Notes: generated by a model not told the origin, from the letters alone. A stretch of DNA of 32,556 nucleotides from Christensenella sp. UBA1262 (GCA_002308215.1 DBVO01000023.1:40754-73309), one strand, 5' to 3'. Counted from the first letter of the stretch, positions 1 to 30,439 are shown. Numbers and translations are program-made.

Positions 1-65
1 GATATTTAAACTGCCTGTTATGAAAATTAAAGCAATCTACTAGCATGCATACTTAAGGTGTAAAA

Positions 66-2015: not shown

Positions 2016-2026
2016 AGGAAAATGCT

Positions 2027-2596
2027 ATGAAAACTCTTGAAAGAAAATATTCTAAATCCGAAAGAATTGTCGCAAAAGCCAAGTTTTCAGCTTGGGTATT
2101 TTTGAGGCAGGTTATTATCGCGCTTATCCTAGGCGGAATTATTGCTGTGCTTTGGATTTTTGGTGCCAAAATCATAGGTTTTATCAATGACAAGCTCAAT
2201 CAGCATATCGCTCTTGCAACGTATATCAAGGGTCTAAAATGGGCCATTCTTGGTTCGGCAGGATTTGTTCTATTCCTAGTAGTAATTCAAGCAATTTCTT
2301 TGTATAGCAAAGAACTCATTGTTACAGAGGACAAAGTAGTTTTGCGTTATGGAGTTTTTGATGTTCAAAATGCGATTATTCCATTGAGCGAAATAAGAAT
2401 AGTCGAGAGCAAACATCGTTTATTCCAAAGAATTGGGCATACTGGGGATATAAGCATAATATCAGATGCAGAAAAGCCATACATGCTAAAAGGTGTTGTT
2501 GCTGCGGATAGACTTGCAAGAAGAATCATGAAACAAGTCAACTACAACAAGAAGAATGCAGAGAGAAAAATGCGCATAGTTTTAGCGGCACAATAA
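2027..2596 (+). CDS. Membrane protein with bacterial PH domain (bPH_2, YdbS/YdbT-like)
   Basis: 189-codon ORF. ATG 2027 is preceded by GAGGA (2015-2019). Two hydrophobic helices (VIIALILGGIIAVLWIFGA and AILGSAGFVLFLVVIQAISL) are followed by LIVTEDKVVLRYGVF...IPLSEIRIVESKHRLFQRIGHTGDISI, the usual layout of membrane-tethered bacterial PH domains. The 11-nt gap to the upstream gene suggests an operon. Confidence 0.75.
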   Translation: MKTLERKYSKSERIVAKAKFSAWVFLRQVIIALILGGIIAVLWIFGAKIIGFINDKLNQHIALATYIKGLKWAILGSAGFVLFLVVIQAISLYSKELIVTEDKVVLRYGVFDVQNAIIPLSEIRIVESKHRLFQRIGHTGDISIISDAEKPYMLKGVVAADRLARRIMKQVNYNKKNAERKMRIVLAAQ

Positions 2597-2612
2597 TTAG
2601 AAAATTGACAAT

Positions 2613-2646
2613 AAAAAAAGCACGCTCTGCGTGCTTTTTATTTTTT
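2613..2646. terminator. Bidirectional intrinsic terminator shared by convergent genes
   Basis: AAAAAAA-GCACGC-TCT-GCGTGC-TTTTTATTTTTT. The 6-bp GC stem (2620-2625 / 2629-2634) is extendable by A:T pairs. It is flanked by an A-run on one side and a T-run on the other, so it reads as stem plus U-tract on both strands. It sits between the stop of the + gene (2596) and the stop of the - gene (2651). Confidence 0.85.
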
Positions 2647-2650
2647 ACAA

Positions 2651-3625
2651 TCAAATTCCCCAACTTCCAGTTATTCCGAAAGTCACTAACTCTAAAATAC
2701 CAGCTAAAATAAGGATATGACCCAAATAGAAATACAAAGCATATCTTCCTACAAAACTAAATGGGATATGCCATTTCCCGTCTAATTTAGGGAGCAATGA
2801 CCTGCGTTCTTTATAAAGAAGAGGCCCAAGTATAACACCTGCAAAAAAGAATGCAGTATATGGTATTAAAGTGAATAAATCTCCAGGAGATATCTCACCT
2901 TGAGAATAGAATTCAGTGTAATTACCGTGAATGTCTTTAGGTGGGAAAACTATTCCAAATACTTTAGGGGTGTTGGCAGGTGGAGTGTAGAAGAAGTATA
3001 AACACACCGTGACTATTATTATAGCGAGACTAATGCCTGCAATAATCCACTTTTGGTACTTAGTTTTTTTAGTTGCAAGTGCAAGTATTGCATACAAAAG
3101 TATGCAAAATGCAAGAAAATGAAGAACACCAAATGATACAAATACACTTCCTGCGTGTAACACTTCTGTGTCTTCAAATATAAGTGTTTGTGCCGCATAT
3201 GTTGCGAGAGAATAGATAAGTGCAACTGCGGCAAGTAGTGCGCCACGCTTAAGATTTGATCTTGAGAAAGTACAAGATATTCCAGATATTGAGAAGAAAA
3301 TAAACAATACGATTGGATGTATAATTCGCCTTGCTAAACTTTCAAAAAACCAAAAATAGCAAAATCTTGAAAACGCATCCCACAATTCAAAGTCATAGCC
3401 ATACCAATTAGGCGCAAAGAAGCCACCTATTAGCATTGCGAGATGGTCTAGAACCATAAGATAAACACAAAATCCGCGCAAGAAATCTACTTCCCAAATG
3501 CGCGGTTTTTTAAGTTTTTGTGGGGCTGAAACTTCCTCAAAATCATCCGTATTTTGAGGTTCTAATTGGGTATTTTCGGTGTCTGTTTCAGGCTCATTTA
3601 TGGTTATTTGTTCATCTTGTTCCAT
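2651..3625 (-). CDS. Polytopic membrane protein, DUF1624 / heparan-alpha-glucosaminide N-acetyltransferase (HGSNAT)-like acyltransferase family
   Basis: 324-codon ORF with TGA stop (2651-2653). An acidic ~40-aa N-terminal tail is followed by RIWEVDFLRGFCVYLMVLDHL, the characteristic first-helix motif of DUF1624 proteins as I remember it. About 8-9 further hydrophobic helices follow. Confidence 0.75.
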   Translation of the reverse strand: MEQDEQITINEPETDTENTQLEPQNTDDFEEVSAPQKLKKPRIWEVDFLRGFCVYLMVLDHLAMLIGGFFAPNWYGYDFELWDAFSRFCYFWFFESLARRIIHPIVLFIFFSISGISCTFSRSNLKRGALLAAVALIYSLATYAAQTLIFEDTEVLHAGSVFVSFGVLHFLAFCILLYAILALATKKTKYQKWIIAGISLAIIIVTVCLYFFYTPPANTPKVFGIVFPPKDIHGNYTEFYSQGEISPGDLFTLIPYTAFFFAGVILGPLLYKERRSLLPKLDGKWHIPFSFVGRYALYFYLGHILILAGILELVTFGITGSWGI

Positions 3626-3631
3626 GGCTAA

Positions 3632-3660
3632 ATGTTAGCATGTTAAACGTTGTATGTCAA
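3632..3660 (-). promoter_or_regulatory. Sigma-A-type promoter positioned to give a leaderless mRNA for the DUF1624 gene
   Basis: Minus strand reads TTGACA (3660-3655) - 17 nt - TGc TAACAT (TG 3640-3639, -10 3637-3632) - TTAGCC - ATG (3625). The A of the ATG is the 7th nt after the -10 hexamer. No Shine-Dalgarno sequence is present. Confidence 0.5.
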
Positions 3661-3761
3661 ACGCAAAATCATTGCTTTTTGTTGACTTGTATAAAACATT
3701 AAAAATTCTAAAAAAATTTTAAAATAAGCAAAGCTTATAAACCTCTCAAAATCGCCATTTT

Positions 3762-3777
3762 CCACAATAGATTGTGG
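3762..3777. promoter_or_regulatory. 16-bp palindrome CCACAAT-AG-ATTGTGG in the divergent control region (candidate operator)
   Basis: Perfect 7-bp arms with a 2-nt spacer, 57 nt upstream of the -35 of the giant-gene promoter. Statistical support is modest: palindromes of this size are expected several times per 30 kb, but only about 0.1 times in a 300-bp intergenic region. Confidence 0.3.
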
Positions 3778-3833
3778 CAAAAACAACACATGTACGCTAT
3801 ACGTTGTGTATGCGCGATTGCGAAAGTTAAGTA

Positions 3834-3861
3834 TTGACTTTTTGCATTAGAGTGCTATAAT
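3834..3861 (+). promoter_or_regulatory. Near-consensus sigma-A promoter of the giant gene
   Basis: TTGACT (3834-3839) - 16 nt spacer - TGc (3853-3855) TATAAT (3856-3861), i.e. an extended -10. Predicted TSS is near 3866-3868, giving a ~55-nt leader ending in GGAGG (3913-3917) 5 nt before ATG 3923. Confidence 0.75.
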
Positions 3862-3922
3862 TATTATGTGTAATAATCTGCACATACGCGCATAATACGT
3901 GTGTATATGCTTGGAGGAGATT

Positions 3923-4000
3923 ATGAAAAAGCAAAAATTATTGCCAATTATCTTGCTGCTAGTACTGGTAGTCATTGCAGTCATCAGTCTTGCAGCATGT
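3923..4000 (+). other. Lipoprotein signal peptide with lipobox L-A-A-C (Cys26)
   Basis: MKKQKLLPIILLLVLVVIAVISLAAC has a Lys-rich n-region and a 17-residue hydrophobic core. L(-3) A(-2) A(-1) C(+1), with TGT at 3998-4000. It is followed by a Ser/Pro/Asp-rich linker (NPSSRQSSGGRQVIDKPDTPVNPTDDDD). Confidence 0.85.
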
Positions 4001-7000
4001 AACCCGTCCTCTCGTCAGAGCAGTGGCGGGCGTCAAGTTATTGACAAGCCTGATACGCCTGTCAATCCTACTGACGATGATGATATTGCGAACGAGAATT
4101 ATATTGGTTCGCAAGAAGCGTGGAGATTGTTGAAGGATTCAGCACTTGCTGCTTCAGCACAAGGTAAAGATGCTAGATACCTCAACTTCGACACATCGGT
4201 CAATTTTGGTTTTGCCAAAGACGTGTATAATGCTCAATACGTTCTTCGTATAGCAGGCAGCATTGACACGCAATATGACAGAACACAAGGTGACTCATCT
4301 AAGCTTCTCATTGAACTCAACCGTACGACAACAAACGTGTTGCCTGATGGAACGGTTGAAATAGTAGCAGATTCAACGGGTCCAGTTCTCAGCCTCTACT
4401 ATGTAAATGAGCAGATAGTCATTGACCTTGGTGGTTTGTCAAAAGGCGCGCACGCGGTTAAGACAAGTGACATTGACCTTACAGACCTCATCGCAAAACT
4501 TGATGGCATCATTGAGAGAATAGGTATCTCAGATCTTCTTTGGGATAAGATCTTTGGTTTGAACATTGGTACAGTGCTCAAAGAGCTTGCCCATATGGAT
4601 TTGGTCAACGTGACACTTGAAGACCTCATCGTCAACTTCTTGTTTGGTGCAAACAAGAGTCGTCTTGTTGATTTGGGCGAAGGACGTCAACAACTTCAAA
4701 TTCCTTGTGATCTTTCATTGATTGCAAGTTTGTTGCCACTTGTTCAAGGCCTCATTCCAGAAGATATATTTGATCTTATTGACAGAGTTCTCGGAATTGA
4801 TCTGAGAAAGATTAGTGCACTCAGCGGTATGGCACTCTACCTCCAAGCAGAAATTACCGATGATAAGCTCACAGGCTTAAGTGCAGATATTGATGTAAAC
4901 CTTAACTCCTTCGGCAGAGATGAAGTCATTAAGAGATATGGCTTATTCCAAAATGACATTGGCATCAACCTCGGTTATACTAGCGCATCATTTAGCAGTG
5001 CTCCAGACATCGATGTTGAAGCAGTCATTAATAATAAGTATTCAGAAGGCCTTGCAAATATTGAGGAATACTCCATCCTCACTCTTGATGCAAGGGTAGA
5101 TATTAACATTAACGCAATTACAAAGACAGTCACGATCGATAATATCGTTGGCTCTTTTGGCAATTTAATTACAAATCTTCTTACAAAGTATTTGGGCGAA
5201 GATATGTACAACAGTCTCCTCCCACTTTTCGCAAAAGAAATAGACTTTAATAGAGGCACATTCAGCTTGTCATTTGTATTGCAGGGCTCTATTAACACGC
5301 GCGATAATGCTAAGACAGAAATCATAGCAGAACTACGTTCTGAAGATGGTTCTACAGCTCTTGGCATCTACTACATTGGCTCCAAGAAAGCTGTTTATAT
5401 TGACGCAAGCCATCTTCTAACAGGTGTTAAAGAAGAAGATTCTTTGGGCAATATCAGCTTTGCTGGTGCAAAATTGAAGATTGAAAACATAGACCTCAAT
5501 GCAATTATTGATAGTTTGTTTGATAAATTAGGAAACACAATTATTGATGCAATCAATAACATTTCTATTTTCCAAAATACAAAGAACGAATTAGAGGGTG
5601 CTATTGCAAATAATACAATCATTATCCCACACAATGCTATTTCATCTGCGGATGATGAACAAAAGGTTGATACAATGGCTCTCATTAATATGATTCTTGA
5701 TTGTATTGATATTGAAATGGATGGCAATATCTTTAATATTACTGATATTAAGGTTGCTCTTACGAAAGATGTTATTGATGCAATTCTCGGGCTTGTCCTT
5801 ACAGGGGATAACGCAGGAATTAAGATACCAATTACAAATATTGATCTTGTTTTCGCAAACCAAGGCGTTACTAAGGTAAAAACATTTGGATTCGATCTTG
5901 GTCTTGGCGTTACAGAACCACTCGTTTCTCTTGACCTTACAGGTCAAATCCAATTTGGTAGTATTATAGACAAGGAAACCTTCTCTAGAAAGATTGGCGA
6001 TGTCATCTATGATGACGCAAGCTATATCGGTATTATGGAAGATGGTACACTTGATATATCCAAGTTCAATATCTCACTTAGCACAGGTTTAACACTTGAT
6101 TTGCAAACACTTGAAGGAAAGATTGGCGAAATTGACATTGATCTTGGACATCTTGGCATTGCAGATGACTTCCTCGCAGGCATGTATGCAAACATTTTGC
6201 TTACACTCGGAAACATCCAAGGCGGTCTTGTGGTTAACCTTGATGCAAGTATTGATTTGTCAACTGGTCTCACTCTTGACACTCTCCTTAATTCTCAAAT
6301 TAGACTCACAATCAATAAAGCAACAAATGGCGAACAAGTAGTTTATATTTGTTTGTCTGATGGTTATATCTACATTGACTTGTCAGTCTTGATGCTTGGC
6401 GTACAAAAGGTTAAGGTCAAAGTGTCAGACATCATGAATCTCGTCGGACAATTTACAGGCGAGAGTTCATCTGATGCTCTTGCGGCTGATGATGAGGGCG
6501 GACTCCTTGGTGGCATTGATCTTGGTAATATTGATATTATCGGACTTATCGCAACTTCTCTTGGTAAGATTAAAGTTACAGATGGATTTATCGAAATTGG
6601 TCTCGCAGCAGGTCTTATTGATAAACTTTTGTCAATGATCGGCCTTACTGGTATTGATATTAAATTTGAAAAAGCAGAAGCTGATGGTGGTATTCGTCTT
6701 GCTGTACCAGACAGCCTTGATCTTGATGATTTGCAACTCGAGATTTGGCTTGCTGTAGGTAGCAACATGGACTTCACAGTTTCTCTTGATGGTTTCAAGG
6801 TTGGTCTTGTAGATGTTCCACTTGGCCCAGCAAATCCAGATGAATTTACAGATGTTTTAGATGCTCCATATGTCTCTCTTGATCTAGGTCTTGGTTTTGA
6901 CTTCTATGGTGATGAAGGAACATCAATCTTTGAACTTGGCGATGATAACAATGTCGCACTTGTTCCATTTACATTCAATGACCCAATGACTTTCAACTAT

Positions 7001-10000
7001 AAGTTGAGGGTAGCAGGCGATCTTGACTTAACACCAGTTCTTGACTATTTGTTTGGTGCAACATCAATTAACACAAACGATAACACCAGTGAACTTCTTA
7101 TTGAAATCTCTGGTTCTAAGTTTGGCGGCAACGAAAAAGTGTTGCTCGGCTTGTACTATACTGGTGGTACACTTTATATTGATGCAGAGAACTTTGGTAT
7201 AACCAAAGTTTCAACTGATATTGACTTGTATGAACTCATTCTTAATTTGTTGATGAAAGACGTCAACATAAAAATTAACGATGTTGGGCATACGGTTGCA
7301 GAAGCACTTGCAGCAGGCGACGAAGAAGATCAAGCGGCTGCAAGACGTGAAATCTTCTTTGAAGTGCTTACATTTATCCAATCAGATTATGCAAAGGTTG
7401 AAGTAACAAGGGGTATTACAGAGGCAATCTTTGAAATCTTTGGTATTGATACAAATAACGCAATTGCATATCTCAACTTTGCATGGGATAAATTTGAAGA
7501 ACATAATCATAGAAGCTTTGAATTTACAGGTGCAATTTATAATGAAAATGCACAATATGTTGGCGCTGCAACAATTTATGCAGATGATGATTTAAGCGTC
7601 AAGATTGTTAACGCACTTGAAGGTCTCTATATTAAACATAATGTATATGACAGAGATGACAATCTTGTTGTTGATGATAATGGTTTGCCAAAGGTATTTG
7701 CACTTTCAGAATATGTTCTAGCAAGCAATGTACATGGTGGATTTGATGAAATTGATTTGTTCAATTCCAGCAAAGATATTGTACTCCCAAGTATTTTCGT
7801 AGAGTTGAAGGGTACAATTTCACTTGGCGCAGCTGCAGGTAACGACGAATGGACTATAGGCGAATGGATTGCAAACTTCTTGGATGCAGAAGATAATCCT
7901 GCACTTTATACCTTCATCGGCGATTTGTTGCTCCAATACAATATTCCTTCAGATGTTGCTAGAGATTTTGGATTCCGTATCGCATTAAAGGCAAGACTTA
8001 ATCCAGAAGTTCCTATTAACCTTACAGCAAACATTAAATATGTAGAATTAACTCAAGATAACCCTTCATATACTGAAGTTTATAAACTCGTTAGAAACGA
8101 GTTCAAACTCTTGTCTGATGAAGAAAGAGCATCATTTGATGGCAAGATGTATGTTAAAGAATACTTGCCAGAGGGCATTCCTCTTGAGGAACTCAAGAGT
8201 CTCGAAGGTCTTGAAGGTGATGTAAAGGTTTATGTTAAAGTTGGCGATAATTTCAGAAAAGTTGATCCAACAAGAGTAGCAGATGGAACAAAGATGTATG
8301 TTGCAAAGAATTTGTTTGATTTAACATATATCCTTTCACACTCCGATCTCGCTATTGAAATTTACAATAAGCATATTGATTTAGTCGATGCTATGACTTC
8401 TCAAACTGAAAAGAATGCTGCAACAATCCTCGCATTGCGTCTTGTCGCTAGCGAGAATGGTTTGAGCACGCTTTATCTTGACTTCAGAGATGATTTCCAT
8501 ATGGCAATCGACAATTTGAATCTCGGAGAACTTTTGGGCAGTTTGCTTTCACTCGTTGGAAACGATGAAAAGAAAGATAATAATGCTACATCATCAGCAC
8601 TCCTTGATAACTTTGATACATCAGATTTGCTCGGAACAATTAAGGGCATTTTAGCAGGTGTTATTTATAGCATTAACGCAGACAAACAAGGCTTCAAGAT
8701 TAACTTCGCTGAGGGTCTTGTGACAATGCTTGTTAATATGCTTGCAGGAAAACAAATCCCAGCAGATCAATTTATTAAACTTAACACAGAAACAAGCTTC
8801 TTTGAGTTCTATTGGAAGTATGCACTTAATTTGAGTCTTGGGATTGATCCTCTCAAATTTGCAATTGGCTTGTCTCAATTGAAGCTTGAACTTGGCGGAA
8901 GCGCAAGCATATTACCAGATGATTTCAACAAGTCTAATTACATGACAATTGACCAATTAGACGAATTCTCCGTCAATATGGCACTTAATGTAGACTTGGT
9001 AGTAAAGAAACAACCAGAACAAATTCGCATTGAAAAGTATCTGGATGTTCTTATTGCAGATCTTGGATTGAAACTTGGTATTGATTTCCCTAAAGACCAT
9101 GACATTACTTATGGTATTGGTTTGACGCTCGGCGCAAATCTTGCCCTTAACAATGCAGAGAACACTAAGATTGTTCTTGAACTTTTGAACACAGTTGAAG
9201 ATGAGATTATAGCAGGCTTCTATATCAAAGGTTCTGAATTGTATATTGATATGGGCAAATTGTCTAAACAAGCAATTTATGTAAACAACACAGATCTTGC
9301 TGATCGTATCTGCGCATTTATTGTCGAACTTATGGGTAGAATAGGTGAGGATGCAGATGCTGTAACATCTGCTGATACAGATCCAGCGCAAGAACTTGAA
9401 ATCATGCTTAACATTGCAAATGGTAAGCTCGGATTGCTTGTTACTGAAAATGTTATCCTTGGTCTCATTGCAGCTCTTGCTGGTAATGATGAGATTGCAA
9501 ATGGTAAATCTATCACAGAAATCATTTCAGAATTTGGTCTTGATCTTTCTCTTAGCGCAGATATGGGCCTTGACCCAGTTGAGATTAACGTTGATCTTGA
9601 CAGTAGTTTGATTGAGCTTGGCATCAGAGTAGAAGATGTAGGTATTGCAACAGGTTCACACAACGCAACAAGTGATACAATTGCTGCAAAACTTGAAGCT
9701 GCAATTACTCGTCAAGACTATGTCTTGCTTACAGATGAAGAGAAGGCTGCTATTGGGGCTGATGCAACCAAGAGATATAACTATGATAGCGGTACAAATA
9801 GTTATGTAAACGATCCATATGGTGATTATCAACTAAAGGATCATTTCAAACAACAAGCAGATACTCACGTTATTACACTTGATCTTGGCATCATTGTTGA
9901 CTATAGCGCATGTGCAACATATGCTCTTGTTGATGAAACAACACTTGCAAATTACCCACTTAACGAAAGATATTCTAAGAATGTACATGATGGCAGATTT

Positions 10001-13000
10001 GTTAAAGATCCAAAGGGTCATTATGTAAGAAATGGTTTCACCTATAATGAAATTATTGAACAAATTTTAAGATTGCCAGCTCTTGCAGACATCCTTTCGA
10101 CAGCACTTCCTGTAGTTCGTTTCGGTGGTGAAAACTTTGTCTCAACAGAAACAGATGGTTCACTTACAGTTGGTGCATTGTTGCAACATCTTGGGCTTAA
10201 TGTATTCCTTGATTCCGCAATAGATGATGGTTTCTTAATTGATATTGGAATAAAGATTGATCTTGAAAAACTCGGTATCTTCGAAGAAGGAACAGACGAA
10301 TTAAAGGAAATTGATAAGATTCATATCACAGGTCCAAACATTTTGAGAGCAATAGAACTCAAGATAGAAGTTGACTTTGATTATGATAAAGCAAAACCAG
10401 CAAGTGAACACGCAAAAGTTGGTATTTACTTCGCAGATGGTGAACTCTTCCTTGACCTTTCAGGCATTGGCAGTGAAAAGATTAAGATTGAAGTTCAACC
10501 AATATTTGACTTGCTTGGATTTGATCTCTCAACATTTGATTTCTCCCTTGGATCAATCGTTGATACTGTAAAAGACGCACTTGCTTCTGCAGATGAAGAA
10601 GAGCCAGGCATTCTTGATGGTCTAGTTGATAGATTTACAGATGTCTCTGGTATTATTTCTATTGTCAACTCGGCAATTACTAGAATTCAACTTCAAGCAG
10701 AACAATGGGCAAAGAATCCATTACTCTACAAGATAAAAGACCTTAGTATCTTCTTCAGTGCAAACATTGTTAATGATTTGCTCTCACTTCTTGTTGGTGA
10801 TGAAATCTTCTTTGAATCATCTATTCTTGATGAGACACAAAGTGGTATCTTCTTCAACCTTGATGATGATTCATTCGCAGATGTTTATGCTGATGATATG
10901 TGGTCATTGAGACTCTTGTTTGCATTAGCAAACAAAGAAGATGTCAATGCTGACCCACTTGCAGAAGATAAGACATACAAGATTGATATTAAGCTTGGCC
11001 TCAACCTCGGTGTTCAATTTGAAAGCATTCAAACAGCAGAAAGCCTTGTTCCAAACAGCAAGAGACTTGAATTCATCAGCCTTGATGAATATCTTGAGAA
11101 TTTGCTTAATGTATTCAATGGCATCTACGAATGCACTTATGATGAAGAGACTGATCCAGCAGAAGATCAAATCTATTACACATTCTCAGAAAACAAAGCA
11201 GATGGCGATTACATTGTTAAGAACCGTACATTCCGCAAGATTATTCCAGGCGAAGGAATTGCCGAAGACACAATGCGTTATACACGTGGATTTGCACTTG
11301 TTAACAGCGGAATTGTGTATAATGTGAACTTCGTTCAAAATGATGAAGGCAACTATGAATATGATGCAGAAAATGATATTTATGTAGCGTACGCAGGCGC
11401 AGGCGCGAACAATAGATATAATGCTCAAATAGACGTAGCTCTTGGCGAGAATGTAAAGCTTTATAACAGAAATGATCTTGAAACATATACAGATCAAAAT
11501 ATTTCACTTAGCATAGCAGGTCTTATTTACTTCAATACTTCTGGTGTTGAAACATACAATATCGGCAACTTAGTGAGCAACCTACTTGGCGAAATGCTCA
11601 TGGAACTCAAGACTCTTGAGGCATTTAATAATGGTATTGGTTTCAAACTTAGCCTGAACCTTGACCTTGCAGCTATTGATTTTGGTGCACTTCTTGGTGG
11701 TGATTTTGATTTAATGGAATTCATCACAGAAAGTGACTTCACAAAGATTGAATTAGCACTCGAACTTATCGAACTTGATGAATATAATGCATTCAAGAAG
11801 ATTAGAAAGAGTGATGGAACTTTACAAGACAGAGTACTTGGCGGTATCTATATGAGCCATGGTTCACTCTACCTTGATGCAACAGAACTTGTTAATGTTG
11901 CTGAAAACTACTCAAGAATCGATAACTTTATGGATCTTGTAGCAGTTGTAATAGACAAAGGCAAGAATGCAATTGATTCTCTTAAGAACTTGTTTGGTGG
12001 CAGTGAAGAAGAAGCTCAAACCGCAGCTGAGAGTGAAGAAGAGATTCTTCATGATGCAATTCTCGCTCTTGTTTATAGCGATACAGCATTCCAAATTCAA
12101 ATCACACGTTCTATTATCTCACTTCTCATAGCATCAATTTTGCCAGATCTTGGTTCTATTGATGAAATCTTTGATATGTTTGATATTTCACTTAATATCA
12201 AGCATGGTGAAGAAGTCTTCTCAAAGATCTCTGACATTGAAGATGCAGAATTTAGAGCTAAGTTCGAAGACGAATATAAGGCTGATAAATATGCATATTT
12301 TGCAGATGAAGACTATAGCGAAGAAGATAATGTAAATGGTAAATATGCAGCAGCAAATATTGGTGGAATTGAAAGATATTTGCCAATTAATGTTTATAAA
12401 CTCTATCATGAGGAAACAATTGATGCTAAGACAGTAATGGTTGCCAATGAGAATAATGCGTTTATTGATGGTAAGACTAACTATATTACTTACAATGGCA
12501 CGTTCTATGAGGTAATCAATTTGCGCACAAGAAGAATTGGCTATGTCAAGGATCCAGATGTTGCTATTAGCGATGCATACTATCGTTCAACAAGATATTA
12601 CTCAAGACTTGATGAATTCTTTGTTGGCCTTGATATCGCAGTTGGCAGCATGAATCTCGGATTTGAAGTTGGTGGTATTTCCTTCGGCTTCGGCGCAGGT
12701 CAAACATTGCTTCCTGATTATATTAGAGACAGTAAAGCTCACACATATATTGACGAACATGGTGATGAGCTTGTTTACAATGCACTTGATCCAGATGCTA
12801 TTGAGCGTACTGAAGATTTGAGTACGAACCCATTCTATGACACAGTTATTAGAGTGGCATTCTCAGTAGAAATTGACTTCTCAATTACAGAAAGCATATT
12901 TGACTTCGGCAAGATATTACATAATATCTTGGGTGATATCAATGGCGTTGTATTTGAAGCTCCACATACAGCAAAGCATTTCTCTTCTGCACACTTCCGT

Positions 13001-16000
13001 CTTGATTTCAGTTTGATGTTAGATATGTATGACATCACAAATTCTGAACTCAAAGTAGAACTTATTGCTATTACTGAAACTGGCTATGAATCCAAGTGGC
13101 TCGGTCTTTACTATCTCAACAATGCACTCTATATTGATGCTGAAGAATTCTTCAACATCCCTAAAATTGCAATCAATGGTTTGAATATTAGAGACATGTT
13201 GTTCCAACTCATTGGTGAAGATATCTTCATTGACTGGGATGAAATCGGAGCATCTAGCGCAGAAGCTTTGGCTGCAGATGATGGCATTGATTTCAGCAAT
13301 AAAGAACTTGCTCTTGCAATTCTTATAAGTAAGAACAATCTTGCAATCGGTATTGGTGATAAGTTGTTTGACTATATCATTGGTCTTTTAACAGATCTTA
13401 CTAATATCGATTTCGAATCCATAATCTATACAGCAATTGATGGTAACTTGGCAGTAACACTCAATACAGAAGACGGTATTGATCTTGAAGCAGCTGCTGG
13501 CTTGAATATTGCTGGTGATAGATATAATGTCGTTGGTGATGTTGAAAATTATCATGATGAAATTCTTGCTAATTTGAAGAACGATAATGCTAAGTATTAT
13601 ATCTTCGAAGAAGAAGATCCAACACCTGGTTCACAAGCTGGTTATTATATTGAATCGGATAATGCTCAATATTATCGCGCGGTGACACCTGTTGATCCAG
13701 CAGGAAAGCGCTATGTGAGATATGAAGTTGTTCTCAACAACGCACAAGATTCATTCAAGAAGAGAATGGTTCTTGATCTTGATGAGAAGGGCATCCCACA
13801 ATATGGCCCAGAAGTTAATGTCCAAAATGCTGATATGGTATATGCATTAACAGAAGGCGATTCAGTTAATAAAGCATATGTCGCAGATGGCGGCAAATAT
13901 GATATTGACCTTAAGTTAGTACTTGGTATTCGCGATCTTGATGTACAATTCATCAATTCTAGAAACTATGCACTCACAGAGGAAGACCTTGATAAGTACA
14001 CAAGCCTCAATGACCTTGATCGTATTAGTCTCTCTGAAACAATTGAATTGGATGCAAGTTTGAAGAAGTCTGAAACAGATGAACGCGAAAACGATATCGA
14101 TCTTAGCGAACTCATCGAATACTTCTTGCCAGGTATAAGCAGTGAAGAAGTTATTACTTTGATTAGTGCAAGTTCAGATAGCGGAAAAGATGTTGACAGA
14201 AAGTTCTGGCTTACAGTAACAGTCGACATCCAACTTTCAGCACTCATGAACTATTTGCGTACAACTAAGTTTGATATGGGTACAGAAGAAGATCCAGATG
14301 CTATCACATATGTAACAAAACTTATTGATGGCATTAAAGGTTTGCTTGACGGAGGCTTTAGCCTTGATAAAGTATTGGATATTGTTCTTGACGTCGCAAG
14401 TTACATTGGTATTTCCATTGTAATTACAACACAAAACGGTCAAGAGAGAGAAAAAGGTATTGAACCTCACACAGTATTTGGTATTTATCTTGTCGGTGGT
14501 TCATATAAACTTATGTCTGCAAACGAATATGTTGAAGCTGATGATGATTATGTATCTCCAGACTTTAGATATAGCCATTACTATGAGAATAGTAAGGGTA
14601 GCTATATCTATGATGGACATAACTTTGTGTACAATCATGATCCAAATTATATTGGAACACGTTACTCATTTGACTCATCATATTGCTATAGAAACCCACT
14701 TGGCGAATATAAACGCGAAAATGGTGGTATCTATATCGACCTTAGCTATTTCAACCTCCCAAGCCTTGTTATTAACAGCAAGACAATGAGAAATCTCGTT
14801 GCAAATCTGCCAAACTTAATTGCAAGCTTTACTTCTAGCGACGCACAAGTAGCTGATGAGGATGAAGAAGAAAGCAGTGGTGGTCTTAGCCTTCCACTTA
14901 TTGATGATACTGTCAGTGAGTATCTAAAGACATTTATCTTTGGTCTTAGAATGACATCGTCCTACATTGCGCTTATGCTCAACCCAGACTATATTAACCA
15001 AATTTTGAAACTCATTGGTGGTGAAGACTTTACACTTCAATTTGGTTATGACTTTGTCAATAAGCCAGAAGTTAAGATTTATGCTGATAACCACAGATAT
15101 AAATATCTCAGCACAGATGAGATTTTAGCAGAAGTTAAGGCAGCAAAAGAAGCATATGATGTAGACCCAACTACAGAGAATCGTGATGCATGGCAACTAG
15201 CAGTTGCAGAAGTTGAAAAATTGTTCAACAACACAAGATATAGATTCACGGTTGAAAAAGTCGATGATATCGATGATGGTATGTATTGGATTGATGAGGA
15301 TGGCGCTTATGCATTGAAGACAGATATGACTGTTTCAGAGCGCAAGAATTATGATCGCGAAGTTGAAGCAGGAACCAAGTTCTATTACAACGTAAGCACA
15401 ATAGATACATACGTAAAAGTTGGTACAGATTATGTCAAATACGTTAATGCAACTACTGCTCAAATGAGAAGCGTGGAGAACAACGCACAACTATACTCAT
15501 TGTATGGTGTTACATTCCCACAACTCTATTTGCTCACAACAGATTATGAGCCAGTAGATGAAATTTTGGCAGCACAACTTTATTGTGTTGATGTTCTTGC
15601 AGAGCGCAACCCACTCATCGGTATCCAACTCTATCTCTGGAACTATGAAGTTGCACTCAATATCAAGATGCCAAACATTAAGGCTGATGAATTTATTTAC
15701 ATCACTGGCGCTGATGCAATTGCAGCTCACGTAGATGCTCCTATTGCTGCTCGTTATGCAACAGAAAGCAAAGAGCTTTTGACAGCAGTGGATAGAGTAC
15801 AAGATGGTCTCTATCAATGGAAAGCTGACTACTATACAGCAGATGCATTTGATGTAGTCAAGTACAATGCAAATCCACGTCAATATGAATATAAGAATAA
15901 GTACTACATTATCGATGGTACAACTCTCTGCACAATCGATACGGACAATAAGTACATCCCAGTTGGCGCACCAATTCCAGATTACATGTACGAAATTGCT

Positions 16001-19000
16001 GAGAATGGAGCAGTATATTATATTCATGTTCCAGATGAAGGCTACTTCAAACTTCAAAGATCATTCGTATATAGACTTACAAAATATGACCTTGATGGAA
16101 AGCGTCTATTGTCAGTTGAAGAAGCATCATCAAGCGAGTTTGAAGATCCAACATCATATTATGTACGTGACGTTCAAACTAGTGCAATTACAATCCCAGA
16201 TTTCTCAACATCAGCATATGACGCATATGCATATGATGATTTTATTGACACAGACGATGTATTCTATGTATCAATGAAACTCGCAGGAAGAATCGCATTT
16301 GAAGGCGGTAAGATGTACTTCGACTATGACAAGTACAGAACCCTTTATAATGCAGATCCACTTCATACACTTACACTTGGTCCAACAGATTTGGATATCA
16401 CAAACGATGAATGGGCAATGCTTAGATTGATCTCATTCAAGTACTTCCATGGTGACTATGTGCAAGTTACTGATAGAGCTGAAGCCAACCAACTTAAGAA
16501 AGACGGCGAACTCTTTATTTGGGCGAACTCAGAACTCGGCGAGAAATATGATGGTGTAAATGAACCATTGAACCAAGTTCTCAGCGGAATCCTTGGCAGC
16601 ATGCAAGGTTACTTCCAAGTCACAGAGAAGACTAAGATGGAAATCTTCTTCGAAATCAAACTCAATATGAGCTTTGAAATCAACTTTACACCAGCATTTA
16701 ACATCATCGTTCGTGACCTCGACCTTGCTATTGATGCTTGGGGTAGACAAGAAGATTTGAAGACAAATCCACTTACTACAGATGAAGATGATTATGAGTA
16801 TGTAACAGCAGAAGAAAGAAAGAACTATTCTGGCGAACTCTTCTATGGTTCATTGACTCACGTACTTGGCATCTACTATTCTAACGACCATGATACAGGC
16901 GAAGCTGGTCTCTATGTTGACCTTAGCTGGTTGCTTGGAAATGGTGGCAAGATCTACATTGATCTTAGCGAATATACAATTGAAGATGTTATCAGCGGAC
17001 TCGTTGGTGATTTGTTAGGAGGCAATTCAAGTGATGCTCTTGCAGCAGATGATGAGGTTGTATATCAATCTCCAGATGATGCATCACTTTATCTCAGCAT
17101 ATTCACAAATGCTCTTGCACTTGAGCTTTCAACAAGCTTCTTGAAGGTTCTTATTGCAGAACTTGCCCCAGATTCAGGCAATATTTTGGATATGCTTCCA
17201 AACGCAAAGATTTATCTCAAGCAAACACTCAATCCATATGATTTAACACTTGGCTTGTTGCTCTATAACGAAAAGGGCACAGTCCCAGTTTTGGATGTTA
17301 AGCTTCAAGTATTTGGTTTGAATGGTAATGGAACTGATGAATCTTCTTATGTCGATTTCGGTAGAGAAGAAGAATTCCGTGCTAGAGAGAATATTGAAGA
17401 ACCAAGCTACATCTTCTATTATGCAAACTTCTATAGTGATAACGAAAATGGTAACTTTGCAAAGAATGGCGTCTATAAAGGTTATATGCCAGCAAGCAAT
17501 GTTGATTTCACATTGAAGCCAGATGGAAACTATAAGAAAGTTGCAGATGAATATGTTGCTCTTTCTAGAGAAGAACTTACTTCTTATACTGGTGACAGAT
17601 ATGCAGCTAATGCATCTTATGAGAGACTCTCTCTTAGCGAGAAAGAATTCGTCCCAGTTCTTGAAAAGTCAAGATACGCTTATGGTTCAGTATGGCAAGA
17701 TCAATATAATGGATATCTCTATGATGTAAACGGCAACGTTCTCTTTGATAATCAACTTTACAGAGACATTGTTGATACAAGAGTGTTCCATGAATATACA
17801 GGTCCTCTATATATTATGAACGTGCACGAGAACAACAAGCTTGAATACGTTACAAAGCTTAATCTCACTGGCTTTACAGCTGAAGGCGATTTGCAATATA
17901 TTTTGAAGGATCAAGCACCTACTGAATTGGTCGACGCTTGTGTGGCAAATGGTATTGGCACTCTTACACTTAGAGGTGTTGAATGCTACCCAGTTGATTA
18001 CAATGGCGACGGAACTACAGATAGAGATGAAGCTGATCGTATCGCAAACAGCGTAACAGTTTACAAAGCAGTTCAAAACTTTACAGACTATACAAGAGTC
18101 GGAGCAATGAACCTCAATGATATTATTAATGGTATTTCTGGAGGCAACTTCGAAATAGCATCGTTGCTTGAAGGATTTGACACCTTTAATACAGTTGAAC
18201 TTAACCTTAACATCGACCTTGGTCTTAGACTTAAGGATGTTATCAACTGGACAAATATCATGACAGAGTTCATCGGCGATTCTGCTATAGCAGAAACAGT
18301 TTTCTTCCTTGCAACATCCTTGACAGCAGACGATCATTCATTCGAGAGTACAATTGGTCTTGATATAGCATTACATCTCTATATCAATGTCCAAAGCTTA
18401 CTCAATGCACTTATGGATGAGGATGGATTTGACCTCGTTAAAGGTCTTGAAGGATCCAAGATCTTCGCTGAAATCGTTTACAACACTAACTTCCATGGTG
18501 ATGATAAGCCAAAGATGAAGTTGTGGATAGAAATTGAAGATGGCAAGCTCAATGGTTATATTGACATGAAGGAAATTGGTGAGATTGTTGGTCTCGGTGA
18601 TTACTTCTCATATGGCCTTGTAGAAGGTGTTGATGTCAACAACCTCCTCAGCCAAGTTTCAGGTTTGCTTGGTGGACTTGGCTCAGCTTCAACAGAAGCA
18701 CTTGCGACTGCAGATGATGAAGAAATTGTTTCAACGGGTGTTCTTCCAGAAAACATTTGGAACATTGTTAATGCTATCATCGGTAGACTTCTTATCGCAG
18801 ATGACTTTGTAACAATCGGTCTTGATGAGAACCTCATGAACGGTCTTATCAAACTCCTCATTGGCGGCGACAATGATGACCTTGTTGACATCATTGCTCT
18901 CTTGCCACACCTTAGAACAACAAATGATAGAAATACATCAGGTATTACAATTAACTTCTATGGCACAGCTCCAACTATTGACCTTAACTTTGGTTGGGTA

Positions 19001-22000
19001 GTAGGAAAAGAATACGAGCTTGAAGTTTCTGAATATAATGCAAAATATGGTGTACATGGTTCTCAACACGATGGTGAAAATATAGTGGCGAACCAAGCAG
19101 GCATTGCATTTGATAGCGAAGGCAAAGTAATCGTTTCTACTAAGGAATATGCACTCAAAGGATTTGCTTATCCAAGTTGGGCTGGTGACAGCTATAAGTG
19201 GGATGGTGAAGAATTCGTTGTTGATGCAGCAGGTAAGTATTTGAAACTTGGTGACTTTAACTTGTTCGTAAGCATCTATGGATTGACAGCAGATGTCAAC
19301 AAACCATTCACTTATGGCACAGCACAAGAAACCATGATGAGAGATGAGTTTGATAACGATATTAGCGATCAATTCGTTAAGTTCGAAGATGCTCACTTTG
19401 GCATTGACCTTGCAATTGGTGTTGCAATTTATGGTAGCGGACCAGCTGGCGATGCAAATATTATTGATCTCAGCGAAATGCTTGACCTCATCCTTGGTCT
19501 CGTAGCTCCAAACAGCGCAATTTCTGGATCAACTCTTAGATTGAACATTGTTAACGAACTTGGTTATTCAGATCGTGACTTTGTAACACTTAATATCAAA
19601 GCATACATCTCTAATAACAAGTTTAATCTTGATCCTGCAAATGGTGAATTGTTTAACGTACAAGCAGCAATCACGCTTGTGCTCCACAGAGATTCTGGCG
19701 ACAAGATTCTCCTTGGCGCATATCTTGACCACGACAACGTATATCTTGATCTCAGCGAAATCCTTGGCGAAACAGCAAAGATCTCTATTACAAACCTTGG
19801 TGTTAATAAGCTTCTTGCTGAATTGTTGAGCGGCCTTGTTCAAGCAAACGATGCAAGCGAAGCAATGGCAGCAGGTGCTGATGAGATTGCTTATATCGAA
19901 AGCACAATGATGGATGTCCCATACGTCTTCATCAAGGTCAACCCAAGAAAGATCTTGCTCCAACTCAACGCAGACGTTGTCAACGCTGTCTATAAGAAGA
20001 TCATGGCAATCCGTGGACAAGAGCAAAAGAACCTTATCCCAGATATTGGTGACTTGATGCTTAAGTCATACACTGATGCAGATGGTACACACCTTAGCTT
20101 GAACCTTAGATTTAGTGATGGCTTCTATGCTTGCTTGTCTATCCCAACGCTCAAGCTCACAAAGGCAGCTCCATCAGGCCTCACAATTTCTGATGCAGAA
20201 AAACTTGAATATCAAGAAGCAATCACATCTGATGCATCAAAGGGTGGTCTCGTCGGTGGTGGAGACCTCGAAGTCAAACTTAGCACAATTGGTTTGCACC
20301 TCGGCATGAACATCACGATGACTTCTGAGAACCACTTAGAATCATCTGAGCCAGAACTCTATAATAAGAGCTTGTTTGGTTGGCTTGAAAAAACACTTGC
20401 ATCCCTCCTTAGCGGAACAGAAGCTGTAGGTAGTTTCGTTGCACTCTCTTCAGCTGAACTTGAAACATACACTGGTAAGCGCTATAAGATAGTTTATAAC
20501 GAAGATCCTCAAGGCTTATATAAGAAGAGTGGTAATAACTATGTAAGAATTGCTACAAGCACAAGTGAGTGGACAAGCACAACTCTTACAAGATATTCAC
20601 AATCTTACGTAGAAGATGAAGAAGGCACATACAAGTTTGTAATGGCAGATATGAGCTTCACATTCACATCTACGCCAATTGAAATCTTCATCGACCTCAA
20701 AGCTAACGTTAACTTGCCAGCAATTTTGCAATATGGTATTGCAGGTATCTTGTTCAGCGATTTGGCTCTTGAAATTAACATGGGCGCTCCAATTAATAAG
20801 ACGTTCATGAAGTTGTATTATCTTGGTTCTTCAAGACTTACAGATACACCAGCTGAAGGATTAAGACATCAACTTACTGCAACAGATACAGGCGTATATT
20901 CAGACGCAATCTATATTGATGCAACAGGTCTTGGACTTGGCAAGATTAAGTTCCAAGGTCTTGCAGGCCTCCTTGGTGCACAACCAGGCGGTCCAATTGC
21001 TGATGCACATACAGCATCTGAAGGAAATTCAGCAGCAGATCAAGCAGCGGCAGCAGCTGCACTCTTCCTTGAGATTAGTCTTGAGAATGGTAGAACATCA
21101 GTAACATTTGATAAGAGCCTCTTAGAGTTTGCTATTGGTCTCTTGAATCTTGATTTGCCATTCGATTTGCCAGATTTGCAATCTGTTGATTTGTCTCTCA
21201 TCTCTGATGGTGGCAACCTCAACGAAATTAACCTCAATGCACTTCTTGACACAGTCGGAACTGCAGCAAATATTCAAATCAAACCAATTACACTTGGTTT
21301 CGGATCAGGCTTCCTTGACAGAGAATCTCTTGTAGACGAAGTTAAGACAGGTTATGCTGGTATAACATACTCAAAGACAGCAGGTTTGTTCAGCCTTATT
21401 CAAAACGTTCTTGATGGATTGAATCCAGGTCTCTATATTGAAGTGCAAAACAACATCAGTGAATATGTTTCATCTGGTACAGGAAGTGTAACTTCATCAT
21501 CTGGTACTTCAAATGTTAAACTTAGACTTAACAAAGCATATAACGAAATCAAGAATGGTGAGAAACACTACATGTTGGCAGCAACTATTGTTGCAACTCA
21601 TCCAAAGGCAAGTAAGACTTTGAATGCAAGCTTGAACATCGGTTCAAACAACATTTACGTTACAGGCCTTGACTTCTTGAGTGGTCTTGGTGATGCAATC
21701 GTTGGTTGGTTGATCCCACTTGCTCTTGAAGATGACAACACTTCATTCATTGATAACTTGCTTACATGGGTAGATGACAATGGAAATGAGCAAAAAGGCT
21801 TAGTAAGAGGTATTGATGGTGATAATGGCACATGGTCATATCCAAAGAACACACCAGGCAGCAGTGGCGGCGGATCACAAGAAAAGATTGATGGTATCAA
21901 ACATACTGCTCCAGATGGAAAGACCGTAACATATAGCTATCCACTTGAACTCAAGAATCTTGTCAAGAAACTTGAAGTAAATCTCTTCAATAATAATGGA

Positions 22001-25000
22001 TATGTTCCATATTATAGTGGCATGGGCACTGTTGCGAATACCAACCGCTTCGTATCATTGCATATCGAGCTCAACCATAGAGCATACAATGAATTGTTAC
22101 TCTTCGTTTATACACTTGTTCTTAACTTGTTTAAGGATAAGATCGATGATGGCGATATAAACGGTGGTTATAAGTACTTCGTTAATAATGGTTCATTAGA
22201 GAGCACATCATGCGCTGGCGTATTGGATGGTCTTAACACAAGATATAAGACATATGTTAATAACCCAACTGATGCTAACTTTAATGCAATGGTCACATAC
22301 ATGAAGAATTACATCAGTGGTATTCCATACACACTTGAACACTTCTTGATGCAATGTGTCGTTATGCCAGCTATTAACATGAACTTGTATGGTGCAATTG
22401 ACTTGGTTGAATGGGCAGAACATGCGCTTCAAAATATCGCATCACTTATTGGTACACTCTTGCCAATCCCATTCTCAGAAGGAACATATAATCCAAATAT
22501 TAACCTCTACATTGACTTGAACCCAACTGCAGCAGATTATGGCCGCAGCGGTAAAACAATGTTGCCAGGTATTCAAGCAATTGAAATCATGGTCAACTGC
22601 AAGAAGAATGGTACTGGTACAGGTATGACAACAGGTACAAACTATTGGTTCTTGCGTATCAATCCACTTAGCGCTGAAGATTCATCAATCAAGACTGGTA
22701 TGCTTGCATTTAATGAATCTGCAGAAGCTGCTGAAACTGATATTAACCTTGGTGATGCATATATCACAATTACAGATCCAGCAACAAGAGAAGGTACACT
22801 TACTGCAAGTGGTAGCACAAAGAGCATTGAGCTCAGAGACGCGTACTTAACAGATAAGAACTACTTCCCACAATATGCGGATGTCACATTCTTGCAGAAA
22901 GATGGAGGCAACTACTTACATTCCTACAAAGAAGGTAGTTATAAAGCATCTCGTGGTACGAGAATCGTTTGGGATGCTTCATCAGTTGACCTAACACCTC
23001 CATCAGCAGAATCAAGTGAGACAAGAAGACTTGCTGGTTATGTATATGGTTATGCTCTCAACACAGTCATGTATGCAATTCCAGTCTACGTGACAGATGG
23101 TAGAACAGTTACAGACGTTAAGTCTTATACATACGATAGTGCTTCTGGTAGCTGGAAAGCTAAGAAGATTAAAGTTGATATTAACGAAAATGCAAAGATC
23201 TTCGGCAATCAATTGCCAGACTTAGTACAACTCGTATTCAATGATGGCGCTAAGATCTTCGGCACAGTCCAAGGCGGATCAGCACTCATTGGTACGAATA
23301 TTAATATCAATAATGTAACAAATAATACATTTGAGTCTACTAAGACCGAAACAGGTGTTAAGGTTTACACAACTGTTCCTGCATACACTGCAGCTCTTGT
23401 AAAGAATCCAGATGGAACATACTTCAAGTACTCACCAACAGATGACCCAGGTGAATATTATGTTGTAGATCGCAGCTTGTTGCCACCATCATCCAACTAT
23501 CCAGCTGGTATCATTACTTGGGATACAAGCAATTATAAATATGATTGGAAGGGTGCAACAGATAAATCTGGCAAACTCGAAATCAGTTATACATATCAAT
23601 GGGGCTTCAGTGCAACATGTAAGGGAACAATTGAAATTGACACAGTCAATTATGAGATTGAGACACTTAATAAGTTCTCATTCGTAAATGGATCATCTAT
23701 CAAGTCGCTTGATAATCTTGATGCATTTGCTTTAACAGCAGATCAATCAGATCTTGAGGCATACATCAACAACATTAAGACTGTAAGCGGTACAACAACA
23801 GGCAATGGCAAGATCACAAACATGAGCGTTAAGTGGGATCTCACAAATCTCAGAAAGGCAATTGCAGATCTTGGCAAAGATGCAGATAATCATACCAATT
23901 ATTACAAAGGTCTCGATGTAGAAGTAACAGCATATGTTGGCGGCGATGTATTTAAGGTCATCTCCGTAAAAACTGATGCAGAAGATGGCGGACTCCTTGG
24001 CGGCGGCAGCAGCGCAAATGAATATGGATTTGTAGGTAAAGGTTCAACAGATCCAAATTATGCAACAGCAGGCCATATTGCTCAAGCTTTCAAAGTTAGA
24101 GTAAAAGTTAAACCATACACATATGATAGTATCCCTGCAAAGGGCGCATTGGTATTTGATCCATATTCAGCAGAGCAAATCAGCGGTGCATCATTCTCAG
24201 TTGAGCGTCAAATCAACTTTAGAAATGGTACAAGAACTGCAACTCCAAAGAGTATGAATGAAAACCTCCTTTCAATTGATGCTCCATACTTCTATGTTGG
24301 TGGTGAATACATCAACGCATATGGCAATGGCCTTAAGATTGGTGATATTACTTATAACGGATATAGTGGCTCAAGACTTTATGCAAAACTTACAATAGGT
24401 ACAGCATACAGCGGCAAACAAGTTGTATATGCACCAATCACAATTAATGCATTGAAGCAACAAGTTACACCATTAAGAGTTGGACATGAAGATGTATTTA
24501 ATCCAGAGTGGTATAGCAATGTATCTGTAATCGAAAATGTCTCATTCGGCAGTGGTATCGTTCACGATATGGTGCCAGATTGGACAACAATTAAATACTT
24601 CAAAGAACAAAATGCAAAGACTCCACTTGCTAATATCTATGCAGGCGGCACAGTTTTTGCACAAGTCAAAGCATACGTAAAAGATGGCAATACAAATATT
24701 GGATGCCCGAAGGATAAAGATGGAAATGATATTCCACAAACTATTACTCTTAAACTTACTGTTGAACAACAGAAGATAACAAATGTTAAATTCTTCTATA
24801 ACAATGGTTTGCAAGGTGGCAGAGATATTTATAGCACTAAGGACGGAGCACCTCTTGTTTCAACACTTAGCGAGTCAGTCCTTAAGAACCCAGATAACTA
24901 TGTCGGTACAGTCTATGCACAAACCCATATGGTTAACATGACTGCATATGGTATTGATCCACTCAACTACGTATTGCATCCAGAAGATTACTTCAAGATT

Positions 25001-30433: not shown

Positions 30434-30439
30434 CGCGTT

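Follow-up and report, generated by a model that had tools for sequence, protein, structure and literature searches.

A seven-residue loop motif conserved across the repeat cassettes of a giant predicted lipoprotein from Christensenella sp. UBA1262

What role does a short acidic, Ala-rich motif play when it recurs through a protein encoded by 8,435 codons? The question is raised by a 32,556-nucleotide stretch of DNA from Christensenella sp. UBA1262 (GCA_002308215.1, DBVO01000023.1:40754-73309; hereafter the window), in which an open reading frame (ORF) scan and translation delimit a giant ORF of this length, opening at GTG on the plus strand (3899–29206). A sequence-only reading of the window had marked 13 hinges in the encoded protein, had noted that the decapeptide SSDALAADDE occurs twice among them, and had proposed that the motif functions as a regular proteolytic processing site, a cation-binding acidic hinge or a docking site for a partner. 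We found that protein-level, family-wide constraint acts on a 7-residue core and that this core lies in a flexible loop inside a repeat cassette.

All 13 hinge strings were recovered at their exact nucleotide (nt) positions in the translation of 3899–29206. The two copies of SSDALAADDE, at amino acids (aa) 857–866 (6467–6496) and 4377–4386 (17027–17056), differ at three synonymous codon positions (tct/agt, gcg/gca and gct/gca), and their flanks are indeed unrelated in DNA: over 150 nt on each side, identity is 57% and 59%, compared with 58 ± 3% for random 150-nt pairs from the same gene. A DNA repeat scan of the whole gene returned only short motif-encoding stretches, the longest of which (58 nt at 74% identity) includes the decapeptide pair. 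When the pattern was relaxed to the loose core [DE]A[LIVMQ][TAV][AST], 13 occurrences were counted, whereas 200 shuffles gave 1.2 ± 1.2 (maximum 4); the recurrence of the motif is therefore real and far above chance. Ten of the 13 occurrences lie 13–48 residues past a YxD-like core, and nine lie 27–48 residues past it.

The shared pattern had been described as acidic and Ala-rich. This description stands in a narrower form: the recurring unit is a 7-residue core, [DE]-A-φ-[TA]-[AS]-[AD]-[DE], where φ is hydrophobic, situated about 39 residues past the Asp of L-Y-x-D in a loop of small, polar and acidic residues. It is present in 12 of the 13 hinges, hinge 1 (SSADDE) lacking it, and it is shifted or degenerate in hinges 4 (N-A-T-S-S-A) and 13 (S-A-A-D); the acidic run is not the conserved part. 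In an alignment of 126 cassettes, comprising the copies from the window and from 11 further loci, only two columns are at least 90% conserved, namely, the Asp of L-Y-x-D and the motif Ala. Among the giant homologues, this Ala equals the Y and D of the cassette in conservation. Relative to this Ala (position 0, A in 117 copies), the preceding columns hold S/T/D at −4, S/A/G at −3, S/A/T at −2 and D (65) or E (23) at −1, and those that follow hold L/M/V/I and also S at +1, T (52), A (28) or V (24) at +2, A (79) or S (37) at +3, and D (85) or E (17) at +4. Column entropy, averaged over 10 hinges, has a baseline of about 2.5 bits and falls to 0.5–1.7 bits between offsets −1 and +5. This low-entropy island, with its single hydrophobic position at +1, sits within a stretch (−9 to +14) in which G/S/T/A/D/E/P/N/Q make up 70–99% of residues. 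The turn of Gly and small residues expected ahead of the motif is likewise present, as 89–99% of residues at offsets −6 to −2 are small or polar. Behind the core, D/E accounts for 63% at offset +5 and 20–36% at +6 to +14; this acidic tail varies in length and sequence and tolerates inserts.

The same core was found in homologous giants. A search of 5.8 billion proteins returned 148 homologues, most of them 7,300–8,000 residues long, 26–40% identical to the query and alignable along the whole cassette array; the few that are named are "hypothetical protein" entries from Clostridia metagenome-assembled genomes (MAGs). In a species-genome scan, the closest relatives fell among Christensenellales/"Clostridiales" MAGs of rumen and gut origin (cattle, buffalo, rabbit and human). 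In full-length alignments, nearly all homologues carry the core at the corresponding hinge and at the same positions relative to YxD, a comparison on which the sequence-only reading had made its proposal depend. At hinge 9 (n = 41), the successive core positions hold E in 29, A in 39, I/L/V in 34, T in 20 or A in 17, and A in 39 sequences, and at hinge 10 (n = 41) E, A and A are found in 35, 35 and 40 sequences, against a mean column conservation of 0.46. P0113, the most divergent of the aligned homologues, has lost both the acidity and the φ residue (φ becomes K/Q/S/Y in its clade) and keeps A-x-T-T-A. Across 1,230 distinct cassette copies, the motif Ala is A in 1,078 (88%). It lies a median of 39 residues past the Asp of YxD (interquartile range, IQR, 35–45); the linker from the end of the preceding helix to the motif is tight (median 12, IQR 10–17), and the linker behind the motif is loose (median 26, IQR 21–35, range 2–89). 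Against 1.84 billion representative proteins, the cassette profile matched only 185, and the cassette family is thus narrow; among the distant copies in these proteins, the acidity is lost and the motif Ala is retained at 349 of 437 occupied positions. A literature search found no paper on this giant-protein family.

These comparisons also refine the inference that the repeated decapeptide reflects protein-level constraint rather than recent duplication or gene conversion. Constraint on the core holds, since it is kept in homologues of 26–40% identity at the same hinges and the same YxD distance, but it does not extend to the exact 10-mer, which close relatives do not keep: the near relative P0002 has ASEAGVADD and SKDAMAAAD at the two sites. 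From the column frequencies, about 0.013 identical 10-mer pairs would be expected, which makes the pair unusual, a judgement to be read with the knowledge that it was noticed after the fact. Because the 10-mer is not conserved in the nearest relatives, its identity is that of two copies both lying on the consensus. The alignments show that the motif was inherited from an ancestral cassette, with purifying selection on the protein keeping it in 12 paralogous positions and about 150 orthologous giants.

The hinges had been taken as boundaries between modules, and this view had to be abandoned. Alignment of the 13 junction regions revealed a common pattern on both sides of the hinge, and a profile iterated from them detected 14 copies of a cassette of about 200 aa in the giant (24–158 bits) and 6–11 copies per homologous locus. 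BLASTP of the giant against itself found no internal repeats, so the repeats, which have diverged to about 12–25% identity, are visible only to profiles. Each hinge is an internal loop of the cassette, with conserved strands and helices on both sides. In order, the cassette comprises a five-stranded β-meander ending in h-h-G-x-Y-Y-x-G-x-L-Y-x-D and a K-I-x-V strand, a short amphipathic helix (D-L-x-x-L-L-x-x-L-L), a turn of about 10 Gly and small residues, the motif [ST]-x-[DE]-A-φ-[TA]-[AS]-[AD]-[DE], a variable acidic or polar spacer, and finally a β-hairpin and a second amphipathic helix. The array of 14 ancient copies fills the first ~5,800 residues, and long variable stretches with Tyr-rich inserts separate the cassettes. 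Searches of Pfam with the 126 cassettes gave only noise (best E 0.0035), a sequence profile search of the PDB with the cassette found no match, and no Pfam, NCBIfam or PDB entry was matched.

The cassettes, all on the plus strand, were delimited with the cassette profile, and the hinge strings were located in the translation. Cassette 1 (aa 100–214, 4196–4540) is a partial match of 24 bits with no Ala motif after it. Cassette 2 (aa 402–657, 5102–5869) contains hinge 1, SSADDE (5642–5659), without the E-A-φ-T-A core. In orthologues, this site (5642–5700, aa 582–600) has a shared motif of its own, [SA]-S-x-[GD]-E-P-[IA]-x-D-T-x-G-L-[IV]-x-A-I, in place of the core, which marks the second cassette as a distinct subtype. 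Cassette 3 (aa 718–944, 6050–6730) carries the first SSDALAADDE as hinge 2 (6467–6496), and cassette 4 (aa 1005–1205, 6911–7513) carries AEALAAGDEED as hinge 3 (7298–7330). In cassette 5 (aa 1451–1649, 8249–8845), hinge 4 is TSSALLDNFD (8588–8617), and the core N-A-T-S-S-A is counted from Ala1563. Just past the core of this hinge, 4 of 18 aligned homologues (P0080, P0088, P0097 and P0101) have a Cys-rich insert, C-T-x-H-T-D-A-D-G-D-G-V-C-D-V-C-G, which by its sequence looks like a small metal-binding or thrombospondin-type-3-like loop; the loop therefore tolerates mini-domains. Cassette 6 (aa 1702–1894, 9002–9580) has hinge 5, EDADAVTSADTDP (9347–9385); cassette 7 (aa 2097–2325, 10187–10873) has hinge 6, DALASADEEE (10574–10603); and cassette 8 (aa 2578–2773, 11630–12217) has hinge 7, SEEEAQTAAESEEE (12002–12043).

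The top profile match, at 158 bits, is cassette 9 (aa 2994–3194, 12878–13480), with SSAEALAADDG as hinge 8 (13253–13285), and it served as the query for AlphaFold2. It is followed by cassette 10 (aa 3473–3736, 14315–15106) with hinge 9, SSDAQVADEDEEE (14834–14872), and by cassette 11 (aa 4255–4450, 16661–17248), in which the second SSDALAADDE forms hinge 10 (17027–17056). Cassette 12 (aa 4796–5008, 18284–18922) holds hinge 11, STEALATADDEE (18689–18724). In a sheep rumen metatranscriptome, a contig of 315 nt aligns to the window over just the 35 nt (18690–18724) that encode this hinge, its flanks being unlike the window; since this transcript of a relative shares only the motif-coding nucleotides, the island of conservation is visible even at the nucleotide level. 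The array ends with cassette 13 (aa 5207–5396, 19517–20086), with hinge 12, DASEAMAAGADE (19850–19885), and cassette 14 (aa 5580–5777, 20636–21229), with hinge 13, SEGNSAADQAAAAAA (21017–21061), and its degenerate core S-A-A-D.

How the giant is held at the cell bears on what the motif can do. The ORF as listed opens at GTG 3899 (VCICLEEI...), whereas the alternative start ATG 3923 gives MKKQKLLPIILLLVLVVIAVISLAAC. Because a canonical lipoprotein signal peptide begins at ATG 3923, this codon is likely the true start, and the GTG extension is probably untranslated. The predicted signal peptide (3923–4000, plus strand; translation and hydropathy scan) ends in the lipobox L-A-A-C, with the Cys at position 34 of the GTG-numbered protein; as read from the translation, the [LVI][ASTVI][GAS]C pattern is present, and lipidation is predicted from it. 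In the hydropathy scan, neither terminus of the protein shows any other strongly hydrophobic segment resembling an anchor. The C-terminus (...GNKTVTVTA) showed no LPXTG, hydrophobic window or membrane segment by hydropathy scan and translation. Windows of 19 residues with a Kyte–Doolittle (KD) value above 1.8 start at aa 8, 1844 and 3491 only, and none stands directly before a hinge. The protein is strongly acidic (D+E 1,240 versus K+R 637). When Pfam and NCBIfam were searched with the whole protein, there was no match in the first 5,000 residues and, further on, a single Big_4 Ig-like domain in the C-terminal part beyond the cassettes (aa 7224–7264; 25568–25690, plus strand).

Structure prediction resolved part of the cassette. 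With the 126-cassette alignment, AlphaFold2 modelled cassette 9 (aa 2984–3204) at an overall predicted local distance difference test score (pLDDT) of 63, with a five-stranded β-meander at 78–90 followed by a short helix, and with a β-hairpin and helix after the motif at 63–76. A longer model of aa 588–1260 (673 aa, 13 sequences) was poor (pLDDT 47), showing low-confidence short helices on ALAA and AEALAAG. Foldseek searches of both models, which are of low to medium confidence (pLDDT 47 and 63), found no match in the PDB at E ≤ 0.001, with template modelling (TM) scores below 0.2; weak BPI/LBP and porin-like matches were not significant and give no evidence of kinship. Together with the lack of a PDB sequence match, this indicates that the cassette fold is either undescribed or not yet modelled well enough. 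Mean-field direct coupling analysis (DCA) of 843 distinct cassettes (effective number, Meff, 411) recovered the YxD hairpin ladder (column pairs 80–97, 82–95 and 81–96) and thus sees real contacts. Weak clusters join the pre- and post-hinge halves (95/96 with 185/186, and 83/85 with 162/163), while others connect motif columns 123–125 with the pre-hinge helix (101–113) and columns 120–122 with the post-hinge helix (168 and 173). In long-range signal, the motif window ranks at the 74th percentile of all windows, whereas the spacer behind it ranks at the 3rd–17th percentile. The DCA pattern of the motif is suggestive only.

We tentatively favour, at somewhat less than even odds, the reading that the motif is an intramolecular cap or latch defining a joint in a segmented fibre that is intact, very acidic and anchored by lipid. 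The motif would form a short N-capped Ala-rich turn or mini-helix. Within each cassette, its invariant small Ala residues and lone hydrophobic residue would fold back against the amphipathic helices on either side, leaving the acidic spacer that follows flexible and charged. One such joint per cassette would segment a polyanionic surface fibre tethered by its N-terminal lipid, with the Ig-like domains distal, and the motif would not be a site that splits the protein into free pieces. Since every cassette copy inherits the motif and it is conserved like domain core residues, it is most simply regarded as part of the domain. The near-fixed length of the linker before it also favours a cap or latch, and close packing on the flanking helices is favoured by the small invariant residues, the one hydrophobic residue and a capping-box-like pattern (S/T/D three or four positions before the Ala and D/E just before it). 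The low-confidence helices on ALAA and AEALAAG and the weak couplings of the motif columns to the pre- and post-hinge helices would fit such a fold-back as well. That the chain stays whole is argued from the lipobox at the N-terminus being the only anchor.

Several observations weigh against the cap or latch. AlphaFold2 puts the motif of cassette 9 in coil at pLDDT <50, so that no packing is modelled with confidence; its DCA couplings reach only z 2.5–3.8, near noise, and are too weak to place the motif; and T or V at +2 in 76 of 126 copies disfavours a helix. Moreover, strict conservation of a short motif between variable flexible linkers is equally the textbook hallmark of a recognition site for another protein, be it a protease or a partner. 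The most substantial alternative, although we consider it rather unlikely, is regular proteolytic processing, in which a secreted or surface protease would cut every motif and yield about 13 fragments, or a nicked fibre with its halves held together. The cut could fall just after the invariant Ala, ahead of the hydrophobic residue, as a thermolysin-like enzyme would prefer, or after A/S at +3 (A-x-A-like). The motif is a short, strictly conserved island of low pLDDT in an exposed loop of variable length, and its Ala is almost never replaced, even by Ser or Gly (117/126 copies), as a P1 pocket would predict. Small residues occupy the would-be −1 and −3 positions, with A/S at −1 in 116 of 123 copies and L/V/I/M/S at −3 for a cut after +3. 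There is also a precedent in the P97/P102 family of Mycoplasma hyopneumoniae, processed at S/T-X-F↓X-D/E (PMC3322551). On the other hand, full cleavage would free everything past the first cassettes, since the only anchor is the N-terminal lipid, no protease gene lies beside the giant in the window or in a second locus (L011), and the P0113 clade changes φ to K/Q/S/Y. The polyprotein of about 14 free fragments that had been envisaged fits poorly with this single anchor, and processing would make most sense as nicking inside a folded cassette, which contact between the cassette halves, suggested by the weak cross-hinge DCA clusters, would permit without release. The specific version in which cassettes are nicked at the E-A-φ-T-A loop, by a protease or autocatalytically, and the halves stay bound, giving a megadalton fibre with about 12 non-covalent joints that could act as a mechanical fuse or shedding device for a surface organelle of a gut bacterium, seems to us improbable. 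Cleavage by signal peptidase I at these membrane-distal sites was considered and rejected as unlikely because the segment ahead of the motif is amphipathic, with no membrane h-region directly upstream.

Docking, in which each loop offers the same peptide to a co-encoded protein, a wall polymer or a modifying enzyme at about 12 equivalent binding sites, is an improbable reading as well. It draws on the same signature of conservation and disorder as proteolysis, and on the two genes that follow the giant both here and in L011, the SPFH protein being 69% identical between the loci and the giants about 40%. This synteny was seen in one other locus only, however, and contact of the neighbours with an extracellular loop is unlikely because their N-termini, as read, carry no export signal. 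A modification of the motif, by O-glycosylation or an ester cross-link on Thr, was rejected, with T in only 52 of 126 copies (A in 28 and V in 24) and Ala in most copies of this giant. Cation binding, by which the D/E runs would hold Ca2+ or Mg2+ and stiffen or bridge the fibre, proved the weakest of the three functions proposed by the sequence-only reading, and we regard it as very improbable. The D/E share of 63% at offset +5 and 20–36% at +6 to +14 and the strong acidity of the whole protein are in its favour, but no part of the hinge varies more, in length as well as in sequence, than the acidic tail, the P0113 clade and distant giants drop the acidity and keep the Ala core (A-x-T-T-A in the former), and the invariant Ala and φ residue would be left unexplained. 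None of the 13 hinges contains a D-x-[DN]-x-[DN]-G, EF-hand or RTX (GGxGxD) pattern, and DxDxDG-like sites occur only at aa 4700 and 6084, outside the hinges; the former (17996–18037) reads DYNGDG and lies in a variable insert between cassettes. Finally, recent duplication or micro gene conversion could have made the decapeptide pair, the remaining hinges being the compositional bias of generic linkers. The pair does share 27 of 30 nt within its 74%-identical 58-nt stretch, and its expected count is only about 0.013. This explanation is nevertheless contradicted, and hardly credible, given that flank identity equals background (0.57 and 0.59 versus 0.58 ± 0.03), that all three differences are synonymous, as for independent codons under one peptide, that about 150 homologues carry the same core at orthologous sites and 88% of 1,230 cassette copies contain it, and that shuffles yield 1.2 occurrences against the 13 observed.

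Upstream of the giant gene lie genes for a weakly GH127-like protein, a bPH_2 protein and an HGSNAT-like acyltransferase, and downstream of it are those for an SPFH/Band_7_1 protein with zinc ribbons, a second zinc-ribbon protein and adenine deaminase. The first two downstream genes (29303–31507) encode the SPFH/Band_7_1 protein with C-terminal double zinc ribbons (376 aa) and the zinc-ribbon protein (355 aa), and the same pair follows the giant in L011 (24277–26496), where identity to the window's proteins is 69% and 56%, compared with only about 40% for the giants. By this synteny, the giant, SPFH/Band_7_1 and zinc-ribbon genes may be a conserved three-gene unit. The public record for L011 calls the giant as 4,703 aa (10001–24112), whereas its frame (2–24109) stays open over 8,036 codons, beginning where the locus begins; cassettes are encoded upstream of the called start, and eight minus-strand "genes" (1–7951) that overlap the giant frame are probably spurious antisense ORFs. 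Four antisense ORFs of 152–186 aa inside the giant gene of the window (15497–16057, 17807–18337, 18938–19396 and 19568–20026, minus strand) are most likely fortuitous frames, similar to those wrongly annotated as genes in L011. The stretch is nearly complete in two runs of one bovine gut metagenome sample, and pieces of it, 95–100% identical, occur in contigs of sheep and cattle rumen metatranscriptomes. From these near-identical pieces, the giant gene is very probably transcribed in vivo, DNA carry-over being a possible alternative.

Ebh of Staphylococcus aureus and Embp of Staphylococcus epidermidis are giant fibrillar surface proteins. Others among Gram-positive bacteria are Giant1–5 of Apilactobacillus kunkeei (PMC12863079) and a 7,651-aa Ig-repeat adhesin of Mobiluncus (PMC10619420). 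The giant described here resembles all of these in its thousands of residues, many tandem modules, adhesin-like Ig domains, strong acidity and rank as the largest gene of its locus, and giant modular surface proteins with acidic linkers are already known as a general type in Gram-positive bacteria. Unlike them, it shares no domain with the others, its cassette having no Pfam, NCBIfam or PDB match; it has an N-terminal lipobox, not a C-terminal LPXTG or membrane segment; and its repeats are at about 12–25% identity, yet each has a short loop motif. The cassette, the lipobox-first topology and the conserved loop motif match no described family.

For the processing idea, the M. hyopneumoniae adhesins are the best precedent: in proteins of the P97/P102 family and P146, disordered regions are cleaved by endoproteolysis at S/T-X-F↓X-D/E, and the products remain attached to the cell (PMC3322551). 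The likeness lies in a short motif in a disordered stretch of a large surface protein, with an acidic residue after a hydrophobic or small one. The differences are that E-A-φ-T-A has no Phe at the corresponding place, occurs once per cassette rather than at a few sites, belongs to a walled organism and is known here from sequence. The nicked-but-intact variant has a conceptual parallel only in SEA/GAIN-type domains, which are cut inside a folded domain with the parts staying associated. Both concern a surface stalk with a conserved loop placed within a folded repeat; the two are unrelated in sequence and fold, and no G↓S-V-V-V-type autoproteolytic motif is present. The repeating β-groove (RBG) unit of TamB, YhdP, VPS13, ATG2 and AsmA-like proteins consists of five strands and then a loop beginning with a helix, and the AlphaFold2 cassette, with five β-strands, a short helix and a long low-confidence loop, resembles it. 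However, the RBG/AsmA-like profiles AsmA, AsmA_2, TamB/DUF490, DUF748 and Chorein_N gave no match at E ≤ 0.1 with the whole protein or at E ≤ 1 with the 126 cassettes, and, unlike in RBG proteins, the cassettes are separated by long variable inserts and carried by a Clostridia lineage.

Under any of these readings, the module boundaries of the giant are corrected, as the "hinge" falls within a conserved unit. If the structural latch is true, it would provide a register for cutting the giant into expressible units for structure work; if the motif is a cleavage or docking site, it would be a new recognition motif and would imply that some undiscovered enzyme or partner exists. The Christensenellales, whose cell surface is little known, are abundant and heritable members of gut and rumen communities, with links to host health. 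This predicted lipoprotein family of roughly 1 MDa is the largest Christensenellales gene product and lies outside described domain families, and its 7-residue motif, present about 12 times per molecule and family-wide, offers one short, testable handle on how such a fibre is built or processed.

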